From: a virus
UHGV virus genome: UHGV-1405961
DNA length: 37,242 nt
Strand: one strand, 5' to 3'
Shown here: piece by piece, positions 24,995 through 30,435 of the stretch
Position numbering within the stretch: position 1 is the first letter of the stretch
How the letters are laid out: each line of letters opens with the position of its first letter
The notes under the pieces: model-generated
What the model saw: the letters and a program-made list of their open reading frames with translations, nothing else
Database searches by the model: none
Told to the model about the DNA's origin: nothing
Program-made: the position numbers and the translations under genes

Positions 24995-26430
24995 CAGAAT
25001 CCTCCTTTCTTCTTGGACTGCGGTTCCTCGCGTTCACGGCGGCGCATTTCAGCAGACTGTTGGTCTGTGTCATAAATAGCGCCATTTGCCTGAATGCAAT
25101 ACACCGTGCCGGTATTGCCATGACGATTGAGACGAAGGATTAGTTCAGTTTCACCAGGTGGAACACTGTCATCAAAAGCGCCTTCCCGATGGACCCCGAC
25201 CCAATAATCGCAATCCTGTTCAATCTGCCCTGTATCTCGTGAGTCACTTGGTAATGGGCGTTTATTGGTTCGGCTTTCCAGTGCGCGGTTAAGCTGCGTC
25301 AGAAGCACAACAACGCAATCAAGCTCTTTGGCAAGGTTCTTCAGTCCTTTGGTGATCATGCCGTAAGCAAGGTCGTTGCGATCGGCCTTCTCAGCAGTCA
25401 TTAGTGTCAGGTAATCGACCAGAATCATGCCAACACATCCTTTTTCTCGCTTGATTCGACGGCTTTCGCTGACGATTTGAGCCAGAGATAATCCCGGCGT
25501 GTCGTCGATGTAAAGCAGGTCGATTTCACTCAAGCGATTGGCTGTTTCGATCGCCCTGTTGAAGTCACCATCGTAATCACCCTGATAGCCGTCATCAGCG
25601 TCATTTGTCGCCGGAAGGTAAAAAATATTCGGGTTAACACCAGACTTCTGCCCTACCAGTTTTTCCAGTATCTGATCACCTGGCATTTCAAGGCTGAACA
25701 TCAGAGCGGGCTTTTTCTCATGCACTGCGCAGTTGATTGCCATCTGGCTGTATAGCGTCGTTTTCCCCATCTTAGGGCGAGCGCCAATGACGAACAGAGA
25801 GCCTTTCACCAGACCTTTCGGTGACAGCATCCTGTCCAGCGATGGTATTCCTGTGCTCATTCCTCGTTGTTCACCTGACGGGTCAAATCGCTTCTCAAGG
25901 TCGCTAACCCAGTCTTCCATGACCTCACCAAATGAGCGAAGGCCGCGACGCGATCCGGTTTTTGCATGGTCTGTCAGTTGCGTGAAAATCGACTGAATAG
26001 CTTCGTACTTCTGCGTTGCAGTCATTCCATTGCGGGAATAGAGCAATTCCGTCGCTTCAGTCATGCGGTTGATGGCGTAGCGTTCCATTGCGGTTTCACG
26101 AACCTGCATTGCATAGGCAACGATGTTTGCTGCGCTTGGCGTGTTCTTTGCGATCTCAGCGATATAAGCAAAACCGCCAACAGACGCCGTTAACGATTTA
26201 CGCTCCAGTTCATCGAAAAGCGTCAGGCCATCTACTGGCTTTTGCTCCCGGTGCATTCTGGTTATCTCTTCGAAAAGGATTTTGTGTGGTCGGCTGTAAA
26301 ATGAATCAGGCTTCAGCATCGCCAGAACTTTCTGGACGCGCTCACTGCTGTCATCATCCAGAAGCAATCCACCAATCACCGCCTGCTCTGCCTCGATGCT
26401 ATGGGGCGGCGCATAAAAATTATCGGTCAT
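24994..26430 (-). CDS. Replicative DNA helicase (DnaB-like, P22 gene 12-type)
   Basis: 478 aa from ATG 26428-26430; DnaB N-terminal motif (IEAEQAVIGGLLLD) and Walker A (GARPKMGKTT); start overlaps the O-like gene 3' end. Confidence 0.9.
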   Translation of the reverse strand: MTDNFYAPPHSIEAEQAVIGGLLLDDDSSERVQKVLAMLKPDSFYSRPHKILFEEITRMHREQKPVDGLTLFDELERKSLTASVGGFAYIAEIAKNTPSAANIVAYAMQVRETAMERYAINRMTEATELLYSRNGMTATQKYEAIQSIFTQLTDHAKTGSRRGLRSFGEVMEDWVSDLEKRFDPSGEQRGMSTGIPSLDRMLSPKGLVKGSLFVIGARPKMGKTTLYSQMAINCAVHEKKPALMFSLEMPGDQILEKLVGQKSGVNPNIFYLPATNDADDGYQGDYDGDFNRAIETANRLSEIDLLYIDDTPGLSLAQIVSESRRIKREKGCVGMILVDYLTLMTAEKADRNDLAYGMITKGLKNLAKELDCVVVLLTQLNRALESRTNKRPLPSDSRDTGQIEQDCDYWVGVHREGAFDDSVPPGETELILRLNRHGNTGTVYCIQANGAIYDTDQQSAEMRRREREEPQSKKKGGF

Positions 26431-27319
26431 CGTGTTCACCCTCACGAACTTTCAGGTAGGTATTATCGTTAAGCAGGAAATCAAATCCCTTTTTGTGCCA
26501 GACGGTTCCGCGTTGATGGTTTGGACGCTCTTCGAACATCCATCGGCAATTTTCGCCTACGTAGCTCAAATAATTTCTCCAGTCCTGCATCGTGAAACCA
26601 TGCCCGTCAAGCTGGCGGGTTATCACTCCGGCTTTGCGCCAGAACGTTCGGATCTGGTTTTTACGCTTGTCATTCAGTGCGCGGATTCTTGGCGCTTCAG
26701 GAAGGATTTCGTGGTAAGCATCGACAACATCCTGACAGCTAACGGAAGGTTTTTTCTTGTCAGACTTTTTGTCTGCTGCGGTACTCTCTAATACGTCAGT
26801 ATTAGAGATAATATTATTATATTCTTTATCTGTGGTAATTTGCTGGTAATCTGCTGGTACAGTATTGCTTGCAGGCATTGGTATTGCTGGCTTTGAGGTG
26901 GTAATTTGCTGGTAATCTGCTGGTACAAAATTTGACTGATAATCGTCATATTTCTCTACCGAGAAAACTGAGAATTTACCGTGTGAAACCCAGTCAATCA
27001 TGCCGAGTTTTTTGAACTTTCTAAGCAGGTACTGAACGCGATCTGGTTTGAGTCCTGTTTCAAACGCCAGAGAGTTTCTACCGCCAAGTAGCTTCCCTCT
27101 GCCTACCAGAATTTCTCCTGCGTCAGTCATTACATACTCAGGCGTATGCTTTGCTTTGAGGATTAAGTGAACCCACAGATGCGCAGCTTCTGCGTCCTTG
27201 TAAAACGGCACATCCATAATTTTACGGTGCAGCAAGGCATACCCCTTACCGCTGCTTTGATGCGGTTGTTGTAGCCTTCTGGCCTCTCTGGCTTCGGCTA
27301 GATTAGATATGTTACTCAT
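26420..27319 (-). CDS. Replication initiator (lambda O / P22 gp18-like), containing the origin
   Basis: 299 aa; position upstream of the helicase; encodes the duplicated peptide [10 protein letters not shown](S/D)K from the internal DNA iterons. Confidence 0.75.
26832..26927. repeat. Origin-of-replication iterons inside the initiator gene
   Basis: GTGGTAATTTGCTGGTAATCTGCTGGTACA occurs twice (26832-26861 and 26898-26927) with related GGTATTGCTGG copies between them and an AT-rich tract (AGAGATAATATTATTATATTC) alongside at ~26808-26830. Confidence 0.65.
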
Positions 27320-27458: not shown

Positions 27459-27862
27459 TAAGCCTCCTCTACTTCGTAATCAGCGAAGTAACCAGTAGAC
27501 ATTTTTAAAAACCTTGATTCGGTGACTGTGTAAGCCTTCCTTCCTTTCCTCTCCTTGCCTTCAGGCTCTATGAGGTGGCACGAATAAATGATTCTGCGCT
27601 GCCAGTTGCCTGGCATTTCCACCACTGCCAGAACCTCAAGAATTCTCTTTCCTTCAGCATCAGCGGTGTAAAAACACTGATCACCATAACCACAATCGGC
27701 TGGCTCATAATTTTTGTGACAACCGCCAATCCAGCGCTCATCGGTATGCACGTTGCCGTCATAAGACTGATAATCTGTGCATACGAAGATAAATGGATAT
27801 ACGGTTTCGAACTTGTCACCGGCCTTTATGCCGGTGTTTACTTGCTTGGTTTGTCCTGGCAT
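27458..27862 (-). CDS. Hypothetical Cys-containing protein (134 aa) inserted between cII and O
   Basis: ATG 27860-27862 with AGGAG 7 nt upstream; [32 protein letters not shown]...[20 protein letters not shown]...SCHLIEPEG. The track ORF extends upstream into cII out of frame. Confidence 0.55.
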
Positions 27863-27871
27863 AATTACTCC

Positions 27872-27938
27872 TGTTACTTGGCGTAACACAGTGTGCTTAA
27901 GCGTCCAGACTGCTACCAACAGCTGGGCGTTTTTCTTT
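27872..27938 (+). ncRNA. Candidate oop-like antisense RNA (antisense to the cII 3' end)
   Basis: Plus-strand promoter-like TTTACT(27837-27842)-N17-CATAAT(27860-27865), then hairpin CGTCCAGACTGCTACCAACAGCTGGGCG and TTTTTCTTTT ending about 40 nt inside the cII 3' end; the same arrangement as lambda oop. Confidence 0.4.
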
Positions 27939-28175
27939 TGTGAGAATCGATGCCACCTGCTGAGCAAGTCTCGCCATCTCATCATCAACAACTCCCCATT
28001 CAAGAACAGCCAGAAGCATGGCCATCTTTGGGATAAAGCTGTCTTTCCATCGCGAAATTTGCGATTCATTAATCCCTAACGCGTCGGCAACCTTTCGCTG
28101 ACCACGTACAGCAATTCGATTCAGGATGTTGCTTGTAATTGCATTCGCTTTCTTGCGAGTACTTGTAAGTTGCAT
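27897..28175 (-). CDS. cII: Transcriptional activator CII
   Basis: 92 aa from ATG 28173-28175; ...ESQISRWKDSFIPKMAMLLAVLEWGVVDDEMARLAQQVASILT recalled as near-identical to lambda CII over the conserved core. Confidence 0.85.
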   Translation of the reverse strand: MQLTSTRKKANAITSNILNRIAVRGQRKVADALGINESQISRWKDSFIPKMAMLLAVLEWGVVDDEMARLAQQVASILTKEKRPAVGSSLDA

Positions 28176-28195
28176 ATGTAAGTATTTCCTTAGAT
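28150..28195 (+). promoter_or_regulatory. Candidate pRE with CII-binding repeat (TTGC-N6-TTGT) overlapping the cII start
   Basis: TTGCGAGTACTTGT at 28153-28166 followed by CATATGTAAGTATTTCC, as in the lambda pRE region; orientation points toward cro/cI antisense. Confidence 0.35.
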
Positions 28196-28254
28196 AACAA
28201 TTGATTGAATGTATGCAAATAAATGCATACACCATAGGTGTGGTTTAATTTGAT

Positions 28255-28286
28255 GCCCTTTTTCAGGGCTGGGATGTGTAAGAGCG
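28255..28286 (-). promoter_or_regulatory. nutR (boxA CGCTCTTACACA, boxB GCCCTGAAAAAGGGC)
   Basis: Minus strand reads CGCTCTTACACATCCCAGCCCTGAAAAAGGGC, matching lambda nutR boxA/boxB as recalled; between cro and cII. Confidence 0.8.
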
Positions 28287-28294
28287 TTGATAAC

Positions 28295-28525
28295 TTAAGC
28301 AGCCATTAATTCAGGCCAGATGCTTTCCCAATCAACCGGATGAAGGTCTTTGCGAGTCACTTCACCATTGCTGAACTTCTCAATCAGAACACAAAGTGCT
28401 GCGCCCAATTCATGATTACGGCTAAGTGCTTTCCTCAAATAGCCGATAGAAGTTCCGCACTTGGTGGCAAATTCTCTCTGCTCTTCCAGTGAAAGGGAGT
28501 TCAGATACAAGCGGAGTTCTTCCAT
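28295..28525 (-). CDS. cro: Cro-like repressor (HTH; YdaS/Cro family), not lambda Cro
   Basis: 76 aa, first gene rightward of OR and divergent from cI; HTH-like QREFATKCGTSIGYLRKALS; AAGGAG Shine-Dalgarno. Confidence 0.7.
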   Translation of the reverse strand: MEELRLYLNSLSLEEQREFATKCGTSIGYLRKALSRNHELGAALCVLIEKFSNGEVTRKDLHPVDWESIWPELMAA

Positions 28526-28556
28526 TTGCTATCTCCTTCCCGTTGTTGAATAAGGT

Positions 28557-28633
28557 AAGTTTACCTGCAGGTAAAAAACAAATCAATACCCACAGGTTAT
28601 TTACCAACAGGTAATCAAAGATAGAATTAAATC
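28557..28633. promoter_or_regulatory. OR region: CI/Cro operators (TTTACCTGCAGGTAAA and TTTACCAACAGGTAAT) with divergent pR (minus) and pRM (plus)
   Basis: Perfect 16-bp palindrome at ~28560-28575 and a related site at ~28600-28615. Minus-strand TTGATT-N17-TAAACT overlaps the first site (pR); plus-strand TAGAAT lies 8 nt before the cI ATG, implying a near-leaderless cI mRNA as in lambda. Confidence 0.6.
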
Positions 28634-29320
28634 ATGGATAAATACGAACAAAGACGACTAAGGCTGATAGAGATAAGAGACCGATTCTGTAATGGAAAGG
28701 CCTCAGAGTTGGCTCGTCGAATAGAAAGGGAACCATCATACGTTTCCAGAATGCTGTATCCGGAAGGAAAAAGCGGAAAAAAACGCATTGCTGACGATAT
28801 GATGGAACTAATTGAAAAATCTTTTAATCTCCCACGCGGATGGATGGACATGCTTGCAGATAGCAAAGTTGGATCTGCAGACCATCTTGAGTTTGCGGGT
28901 AACGTTCGTGCGGGTTTTGTTCCGGTAATTGGTGAAGCCGTTTTGGGAGTTGATGGCTCAGTGGATATGATTGAATTCAGATCCGGTTGGTTAAGCATCT
29001 ACAGTGGCGATAAAGATGCTTACGGTCTGAAGGTTAAGGGTGACAGCATGTGGCCAAGGATTCAGTCAGGAGAATATGTTGTTATTGAACCAAATACGCC
29101 AGTACATCCAGGTGATGAAGTCTTTGTAAGGACCAAAGATGGTCATAACATGATAAAGATCATGAACAAAACAAGAGACGGAGACTATCAGTTTAGTAGT
29201 ATAAACAGCGATCACCGTCCAATCACTCTTCCTGTTGAAGAAGTTGATAAAATGCATTTTGTTTCAGCTATTGTGAAACACACTAGGTACGTAGACCAGG
29301 ACGATCTGCCAAAATTTTGA
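28634..29320 (+). CDS. cI: CI repressor (N-terminal HTH, C-terminal S24 LexA-like autopeptidase)
   Basis: 228 aa; S24-type C-terminal domain motifs (VKGDSMWPRIQSGEYVVIEP, Ser-Lys dyad context) and divergent position from cro. Confidence 0.85.
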   Translation: MDKYEQRRLRLIEIRDRFCNGKASELARRIEREPSYVSRMLYPEGKSGKKRIADDMMELIEKSFNLPRGWMDMLADSKVGSADHLEFAGNVRAGFVPVIGEAVLGVDGSVDMIEFRSGWLSIYSGDKDAYGLKVKGDSMWPRIQSGEYVVIEPNTPVHPGDEVFVRTKDGHNMIKIMNKTRDGDYQFSSINSDHRPITLPVEEVDKMHFVSAIVKHTRYVDQDDLPKF

Positions 29321-29334
29321 GGATAAAGCAGCAA

Positions 29335-29631
29335 ATGTTTATACCAGGTATAGTGGTCGCTGTTGTAATCATCTGCTTCATATGGGCAAAGTTATCTCCT
29401 GTAAGCTCTAAGCATACAGCTGAACTCATGAAGAAGAAGCATCTTATACATGAGGCAGAAACGATAATTAAGAAGTTCAAAGGCATGTCATATGACGACA
29501 TGTCATCAGATCAGATTGCTATATATAAATGCGCCATTGAGCGTCTTGACTACTTAAACGGACTCAAACCCAAACACACCCCGGTAGAATCAAAATTGCC
29601 GCAATGGCCAAGCAATCCAAATAGCTTCTGA
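29335..29631 (+). CDS. Hypothetical small membrane protein co-transcribed with cI (rex-slot moron)
   Basis: 98 aa from ATG 29335 (track ORF starts at TTG 29317); N-terminal TM helix MFIPGIVVAVVIICFIWAKL; AT-rich; followed 12 nt later by a strong terminator. Confidence 0.55.
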   Translation: MFIPGIVVAVVIICFIWAKLSPVSSKHTAELMKKKHLIHEAETIIKKFKGMSYDDMSSDQIAIYKCAIERLDYLNGLKPKHTPVESKLPQWPSNPNSF

Positions 29632-29809: not shown

Positions 29810-29840
29810 TGCTCTTAAAAATTTAGCCCTGAAGAAGGGC
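29810..29840 (+). promoter_or_regulatory. nutL (boxA-like GCTCTTAA, boxB GCCCTGAAGAAGGGC)
   Basis: The string TGAAGGTGATGCTCTTAAAAATTTAGCCCTGAAGAAGGGCAGC matches lambda nutL as recalled. Confidence 0.8.
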
Positions 29841-30108: not shown

Positions 30109-30435
30109 ATGGATGCACAAACACGCCGCCGCGAACGTCGCGCAGAGAAACAGGCTCAATGGAAAGCAGCAAATCCCCTGTTGGTTGGGGTAAGCGCAAA
30201 ACCAGTTAACCGCCCTATTCTCTCGCTGAATCGCAAACCGAAATCACGAGTAGAAAGCGCACTGAATCCGATAGACCTTACGGTGCTGGCTGAATACCAC
30301 GAACAGATTGAAAGCAACCTGCAACGTATTGAGCGCAAGAATCAGCGCACATGGTACAGCAAGCCACGCAGTGAAATGGGTGTGACTTGTGTTGGTCGCC
30401 AGAAAATGAAATTAGGCAGCAAACCACTTATTTGA
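30109..30435 (+). CDS. N: Antitermination protein N
   Basis: 108 aa, MDAQTRRRERRAEKQAQWKAANPLLVGVSAKPVNRPILSLNRKPKSRVESALNPIDLTVLAEYH.QIESNLQRIERKNQRTWYSKP, recalled as lambda N (Arg-rich boxB-binding motif); AGGAG Shine-Dalgarno. Confidence 0.9.
   Translation: MDAQTRRRERRAEKQAQWKAANPLLVGVSAKPVNRPILSLNRKPKSRVESALNPIDLTVLAEYHEQIESNLQRIERKNQRTWYSKPRSEMGVTCVGRQKMKLGSKPLI

Follow-up and report, generated by a model that had tools for sequence, protein, structure and literature searches.

A probable lambda-type tR1 stem-loop between nutR and cII in a mosaic lambdoid phage genome

Organization of the early-right region

The window analysed here is the whole 37,242-nucleotide stretch of the UHGV virus genome UHGV-1405961, numbered from its first letter. 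It carries a LexA/S24-like repressor gene on the + strand (28634-29320, 228 amino acids). On the minus strand are found a gene of 76 codons in the position of cro (28295-28525, from the list of open reading frames), with its TAA stop codon at 28295-28297, and a cII-type activator gene (27897-28175, 92 amino acids) starting with the ATG at 28173-28175. This arrangement of the repressor, cro-position and CII-type genes assigns the early-right operon to the minus strand, where the cro stop codon, boxA, boxB, a hairpin and the cII ATG are met in this order. For annotation purposes the orientation of the operon is thereby fixed, and nutR, the rut segments, tR1, an IHF-like site, the cII ribosome-binding site and pRE can be placed to the base.

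The cro-position gene is not the lambda Cro allele, and phage mEp043 carries the same gene in the cro position. The equivalent gene of mEp043 is annotated as 'prophage antirepressor'. The cII-type protein is 57% identical to lambda CII; within the aligned part of its gene, the first ~40 nucleotides match the Sf6/HK542 allele exactly.

Several elements of the leader between the two minus-strand genes were assigned from sequence and alignment. The nutR boxA CGCTCTTA (28279-28286, minus strand) is identical in lambda and in the annotated boxA of HK542, and is followed by the nutR boxB GCCCTGAAAAAGGGC (28255-28269, minus strand). Alignment to the lambda annotation (J02459) gives the equivalents of rutA (lambda 38249-38266) at 28269-28286 and of rutB (lambda 38282-38301) at 28234-28253, both on the minus strand. 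The tR1 RNA hairpin is assigned to 28208-28233 of the same strand on the basis of its fold, of the Sf6 annotation and of covariation. It has the 5' arm GGUGUAUGCA (28233-28224), the loop UUUAUU (28223-28218) and the 3' arm UGCAUACAUU (28217-28208). An IHF core-like site, ATTCAATCAATTG (28198-28210, minus strand), which adjoins the palindrome's 3' arm, was found by a script scan with 12 of 13 matches to WATCAANNNNTTR. The cII Shine-Dalgarno sequence TAAGGA (28187-28192, minus strand) corresponds to lambda 38343-38348, the ribosome-binding site named in PMC5869508.

On the opposite strand, the pRE promoter (28153-28185, +) was identified from its sequence and from the pRE annotations of Sf6 and HK542 at aligned positions. 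It has CII boxes TTGC-N6-TTGT at 28153-28166 and a -10 element AAGTAT at 28180-28185, and its + strand transcript passes through the palindrome. The lambda CII boxes read TTGC-N6-TTGC; the 13-nt spacing to the -10 element AAGTAT is kept in the window, and Sf6 and HK542 have the same box sequence as the window.

The partners for N action are also present, on the far side of the repressor gene from cII. A lambda-type N antiterminator gene (30109-30435, +, 108 amino acids, from the list of open reading frames) codes for the N-terminal arginine-rich motif MDAQTRRRERRAEKQAQWKAAN, which we take to be that of lambda N. The nutL boxB GCCCTGAAGAAGGGC was recognized by sequence at 29826-29840 (+). The best matches, phiv205-1, mEp043, HK633 and IME10, cover only 38-46% of a 22-kb query with 95.5-97.5% identity. 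Taken in full, the window is a mosaic lambdoid phage or prophage. Non-lambda immunity genes lie here beside a lambda-identical nutR/tR1 segment and a lambda-type N gene, with a mosaic junction right after the cro stop codon.

The palindrome and its identity with the lambda tR1 region

Read on the + strand, the palindrome consists of GTATGCA (28211-28217), the spacer AATAAA (28218-28223) and TGCATAC (28224-28230). The first-pass annotation had described a perfect 7-bp inverted repeat with a 6-bp AT-rich spacer in the segment 28205-28235, lying between nutR and the cII start, and both its letters and its location are found as described, between boxB (28255-28269, minus strand) and the cII ATG (28173-28175, minus strand). 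By an inverted-repeat search, the arms are perfect over 8 bp (28210-28217 and 28224-28231). The first-pass annotation left out the strand of the relevant transcript, which is the minus strand, with UUUAUU as the loop.

The exact pattern occurs once in the window and in 0 of 100 shuffled sequences, a count that is specific to one sequence and hence a weak gauge of chance. When all repeats of the same geometry are counted, the window has 12 with perfect 7-bp arms and a 6-nt spacer where dinucleotide shuffles have 2.6; for perfect 8-bp arms with this spacer the figures are 4 and 0.7. When spacers of 3-8 nt are allowed, perfect inverted repeats with 8-bp arms number 14 against 4.4 expected. An inverted repeat of such size is not improbable by itself; the palindrome is significant because of its position, its identity with lambda and the covariation observed in relatives. 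Besides the palindrome, three repeats have perfect 8-bp arms spaced by 6 nt; they start at 26786, 31374 and 37053 on the + strand. The one near 26786 is located within the open reading frame of an O-like replication protein (26420-27319), where iteron or origin repeats are expected.

Comparison with the tR1 region of lambda, which had been proposed as a check, establishes that the palindrome is base for base that of lambda, at 38305-38324, the full stem-loop corresponding to lambda 38302-38327 (lambda coordinates are obtained as 66535 minus the window coordinate). The identity extends over the whole leader. From boxA to the cII ATG the minus strand reproduces lambda J02459 38249-38362 except for one T-to-C change between boxA and boxB, which gives 99.1% identity over the 114-nt leader and 100% over the palindrome. 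Similarity to lambda stops at the cII start codon, beyond which the sequence is that of the Sf6/HK542 allele. In the lambda record, the features in this segment just upstream are rutA (38249-38266), nutR (38265-38281) and rutB (38282-38301), while cII is at 38360. The C-rich, G-poor rut site around boxB, upstream of the release sites, is covered by this identity, so that rutA and rutB transfer to an identical sequence.

Megablast of a 151-nt region matched 64 phage records, among which Sf6, HK446 and others are 100% identical and lambda and 434 are 99.1% identical. The 114-nt leader is found in 760 of 5,426 complete E. coli genomes. In Sf6 (AF547987), positions 27481-27509 are annotated as 'terminator; similar to phage lambda; tR1', and this feature aligns to exactly GGTGTATGCATTTATTTGCATACATTCAA, the hairpin plus its tail. 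The match to Sf6 is 100% over 137 nt, its annotation resting on similarity to lambda, not on experiment. The HK542-type records have boxA, boxB and pRE annotated at the aligned positions.

At the level of sequence, the palindrome is the long-known RNA stem-loop of the Rho-dependent terminator tR1 of lambda, an ordinary element that is already described. Gene and site order is the same as in the lambda nutR-rut-tR1 segment (38249-38370), with the same opposing pRE, and the N gene and nutL are present. The flanking cro-position and cII genes are other alleles, whereas the element itself does not differ. Its discovery value is small: a mosaic lambdoid phage carries the lambda leader unchanged, and with it the textbook tR1 hairpin.

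RNA folding and terminator class

In the sense of the pR transcript, the 32-nt segment on the minus strand folds into a 10-bp stem formed by the two arms described above, with two terminal G·U pairs and the loop UUUAUU. Its predicted energy is -12 kcal/mol (z -4.2), and none of 200 shuffled sequences of 32 nt folds as well. The first-pass annotation had considered an RNA hairpin as one of two possible forms of the palindrome, and this reading agrees with the stable stem-loop predicted for the pR-sense strand. On the + strand the same 32 nt form 8 Watson-Crick pairs only (-9.3 kcal/mol, z -3.5). With 46 nt of context, z is -2.5 on the minus strand and -1.2 on the + strand. When the 114-nt leader is folded, boxB and the tR1 hairpin are the two main helices.

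Like intrinsic terminators, the hairpin is a stem-loop that closes a transcription unit, but it has few G-C pairs and lacks their U-tract. A scan with the intrinsic-terminator consensus did not call the palindrome on the minus strand, and no U-tract follows the stem. We rejected an intrinsic terminator: 3 of the 10 pairs are G-C, the tail AUUCAAUCAAUUGUU has no U-run and the scan is negative. An Rfam scan of positions 27500-29500 with E<=1 gave no family over the hairpin; a chance snoRNA match elsewhere in the segment was its only hit. The terminator scan did find a weak stem on the + strand, TACACC-ATA-GGTGTG (28228-28242) followed by GTTTAATTTG, which overlaps the edge of the palindrome on the strand of the pRE transcript. 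This stem is the complement of a small ACACCUAUGGUGU helix in the fold of the pR leader, and the call is probably due to chance (2 found against 1.0 expected).

Covariation in diverged leaders

About 46 phage records show hardly any variation in the lambda-type leader, so conservation within this type is uninformative on function. The variants in mEp332, ev099, Chlobot and 683R2 have substitutions outside the 7-bp arms; in 683R2 the base directly after the 3' arm is changed. Diverged leaders were gathered by anchoring on cII homologues in IMG/VR.

At the same position, mEp043 and Sf101 have UGGUUUUGCG-UUUCUU-UGCGAAGCCA, which forms a 10-bp stem on the sense strand (-12.8 kcal/mol, z -4.3); the values for the antisense strand are -3.6 kcal/mol and a z of +0.8. 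P22-type leaders have a different boxB, ACCGCCGACAACGCGGU, and the hairpin GGAUUUGCG-UGUAUU-UGCGAAUCC. The lambda, mEp043 and P22 types align without gaps in MAFFT, all with 6-nt loops, and the end of the stem lies 15 nt from TAAGGA for the 10-bp stems and 16 nt for the 9-bp stem of P22.

In the cross-family alignment 91.7% of the cells pair, as compared to at most 58% when the 3' partner is slid, and two-sided changes are found in 4 of the 10 stem pairs. The covariation score reaches 0.513, whereas shuffles give 0.271 and none of 500 is as high, in a small sample of six distinct rows that represent three independent sequence types. G·U pairs account for 14 of the 55 paired cells and would become A·C mismatches on the opposite strand.

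HK620, mEpX2, HK630, HK140 and some Stx phages share a fourth type of leader. Its boxB is unrelated, and it forms a hairpin of its own, GCGCAU-AAGUUG-AUGCGC, which ends 16 nt before the same ribosome-binding site in a register shifted by ~3 nt. A common variant of this type, GCGCAUC-AGUU-GGUGCGU, again uses G·U pairs. No two-sided changes occur within the HK620-type family, where shuffles equal the observed value and the count is uninformative. In the HK620 record, a 7-nt 'tR1' feature is annotated directly before the hairpin and touches its first base.

Since pairing through the compensatory and G·U changes is possible on the rightward transcript alone, what is conserved is an RNA hairpin of the pR transcript, and neither a DNA palindrome for a dimeric protein nor a hairpin of the pRE leader. 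The comparison adds to the lambda description that the hairpin is kept as RNA on the pR strand across diverged lambdoid leaders, and it supports a selected role for a stem-loop hitherto ranked secondary to rut in tR1.

Alternative readings of the palindrome

The hairpin could chiefly control translation of cII, its fixed distance to the Shine-Dalgarno sequence shaping the folding of the leader or the loading of ribosomes. The spacing of 15-16 nt between the stem end and TAAGGA in the three in-register types, and of 16 nt in the HK620 type, is in line with such a role, although common descent free of insertions and deletions can also account for it. What has been reported to limit cII translation is, however, a separate stem-loop at the ribosome-binding site, from lambda 38339 onward (PMC5869508), and in the fold of the 114-nt leader the tR1 hairpin and the helix at the ribosome-binding site are independent. 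We regard a role chiefly in cII translation as unlikely.

An element acting at the DNA level has a lower probability, and we find it quite unlikely. It would be the site of a dimeric protein, as the first-pass annotation had also envisaged, or the AT-rich upstream half of an IHF site, bending the DNA for cII or tR1. We are aware of no protein that binds the palindrome as such. The IHF core-like site with its 12 of 13 matches (28198-28210) starts beside the 3' arm, and the T-rich loop sits where IHF sites often have an A/T tract. Lambda has an IHF site ahead of the cII ribosome-binding site (PMC5869508), and a passage of that paper citing Peacock 1984 and Mahajna 1986 relays the suggestion of two effects for this site, suppression of termination at tR1 and help to cII translation. 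Against this, an equally good match to the IHF core arises in 25% of shuffled leaders, and two leader types, P22 and HK620, lack the consensus, while in the mEp043 type its position is shifted. The IHF site was hence rejected as a conserved feature, given its absence from 2 of the 4 families and the chance rate of 25%. The symmetry of the DNA is itself lost in the mEp043/Sf101 and P22 types, in which pairing needs G·U and thus RNA made from one strand; the idea of a dimeric protein-binding site does not survive in these relatives, which lose the DNA palindrome and keep the RNA stem.

A third reading has the hairpin work in the leftward pRE transcript, at ~+19 to +39 of the + strand RNA, where it could, for instance, stabilise the 5' end of the message that establishes cI. 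The pRE -10 element (28180-28185, +) is placed such that the pRE RNA must cross the palindrome, which is perfect in the lambda type and folds on the + strand in the 32-nt context (-9.3 kcal/mol, z -3.5). This signal drops to a z of only -1.2 in the 46-nt context, the antisense RNA of mEp043/Sf101 forms no hairpin (-3.6 kcal/mol, z +0.8), and the G·U cells, 14 of 55, turn into A·C mismatches in pRE-sense RNA. We hold this reading to be very unlikely. Both the dimeric operator and the pRE leader hairpin were rejected as the conserved function because the pairing is strand-specific.

Least probable of all, in our estimate, is that the palindrome lacks a selected function of its own and is merely kept within a recently shared mosaic nutR-cII module: the module is indeed nearly invariant (about 46 phage records, 760 of 5,426 E. 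coli genomes) and repeats of this size arise by chance ~2.6 times per window, but pairing is kept in register in three diverged types through four two-sided changes, and the fourth type, that of HK620, forms a hairpin of its own close to this position.

Rho-dependent release and proposed role of the stem-loop

We privilege the reading, which we consider probable, that the palindrome is the lambda-type tR1 stem-loop, transcribed from pR on the minus strand within the cro-nutR-tR1-cII leader. The stem-loop ahead of the tR1 release sites is said to have been described first by Rosenberg et al. in 1978, and three clusters of release at tR1 were reportedly mapped by Lau, Roberts and Wu in 1982-83. 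Deletions in lambda tR1 made by Hart and Roberts in 1994 reportedly indicated that termination depends mainly on the upstream rut, the sequences near the release sites modulating where release occurs.

The positions of release can be transferred to the window from published experiments. On a lambda cro-tR1 template, Rho-dependent termination takes place in an early region at transcript positions 237-259 and in a late region at 259-298 (Zhu et al. 2022, PMC8940904). We counted this template by script from the +1 of T7A1; the A29 halt and the 389-nt run-off were reproduced, which validates the mapping of transcript onto lambda. The early region corresponds to lambda 38309-38331, or 28226-28204 of the window, and the late one to lambda 38331-38370, or 28204-28165, both on the minus strand. 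The palindrome falls inside the early release zone, and the late zone runs from 7 nt beyond the palindrome to codon 4 of cII. The earlier placement of the palindrome where tR1 acts in lambda is borne out, the leader being identical in sequence to the lambda nutR-tR1-cII segment and overlapping the early zone of Rho release.

Release sites have further been located ~13, 35 and 68 nt past the end of rut (Gocheva et al. 2015, PMC4344519). Counted from the end of rutB at 38301, they lie at ~lambda 38314, 38336 and 38369, equivalent to ~28221, ~28199 and ~28166 of the window. Site I (~28221) falls within the loop of the hairpin, which can therefore play no part in release there. The middle site, a U followed by a G, lies 12 nt beyond the stem if only the perfect 7 bp are counted and 9 nt beyond it if the extended stem is taken. 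NusA raises pausing in the tR1 terminator regions, and NusA with NusG raises termination in the early region (PMC8940904). Clustered Rho-dependent release within and after the hairpin of this phage would be a property carried over from these lambda experiments on an identical sequence.

Within this frame, the most likely role of the hairpin is to support a pause, to protect the 3' end, or both, in an N-suppressible tR1. It would act as RNA in the nascent pR transcript. When RNA polymerase has extruded the core of the hairpin, the 3' end of the RNA would stand ~9-12 nt farther downstream, at U28199/G28198, the equivalent of tR1 site II in lambda. Hairpin-stabilised pauses, the his leader pause among them, have this same spacing between stem and 3' end. 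At the equivalent of site II the hairpin may thus favour a NusA-responsive pause from which Rho gains time. The likeness to class I pauses of the his and trp leaders, which are enhanced by NusA, lies in a hairpin that ends ~9-12 nt upstream of the position of pause or release; this is a functional resemblance rather than membership of the class, and the consensus pause element lacks its -11/-10 GG here.

After release farther downstream, the hairpin would be the first stable stem-loop to halt 3'-exonucleases and could so form the 3' end of the cro message. Transcripts terminated by Rho end at steady state just past stable stem-loops devoid of a U-tract, which protect them against PNPase and RNase II (Dar & Sorek 2018, PMC6061677). 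The tR1 hairpin is like these protective 3' stem-loops in being stable, in having no U-tract and in the location of Rho release downstream; it differs in that their rut lies downstream of the stem-loop, whereas the rut of tR1 is upstream. N acting at nutR would override the terminator and permit expression of cII, O and P.

More tentatively, the tR1 stem-loop could itself be the selected RNA module, at least three diverged families keeping it through compensatory change, with a constant 15-16 nt from the stem end to the cII Shine-Dalgarno sequence, and the HK620 type substituting an unrelated hairpin at a comparable distance; this is a possibility to which we give less than even weight. If true, it would give the stem-loop a role beyond the rut-centred view of tR1. 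The hairpin might then set a stable 3' end for the cro mRNA. Alternatively, it might time a polymerase pause to the loading of ribosomes on cII, which would tune the choice between lysis and lysogeny.

Insertions and unusual records of the leader

Two leaders gathered in the survey are interrupted by insertion sequences. In the Stx-type prophage CP-1639 (AJ304858.2; positions 278-320 of leader L010), an IS629 end adjoins TTCATACATTCAATCA inside the 3' arm of the palindrome, so that IS629 splits nutR and rut from the cII leader. In IMGVR_UViG_2547132127_000009 (leader L029, positions ~300-440), the end of an IS4 element (InsG), not nutR, precedes the lambda-type hairpin and the cII leader. We rejected this record as a put-type leader like that of HK022, as BLAST identifies the IS4 end. 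The stretch is 100% identical to the IS4 of Lambda_4B5, with the junction just before ACACCTATGG, inside rutB; with it, two independent IS insertions are seen in so short a leader.

Two records stand out by their assigned hosts. The 48,361-bp record of Campylobacter phage CJLB-4 (MW057783.1) has the lambda leader at lambda-like coordinates, 38169-38282, and the 254-kb record of Aeromonas phage AP1 (MT713136.1) carries a leader of the HK620 type at its extreme end. In both cases the public record seems to have been contaminated or misassembled with E. coli lambdoid sequence.
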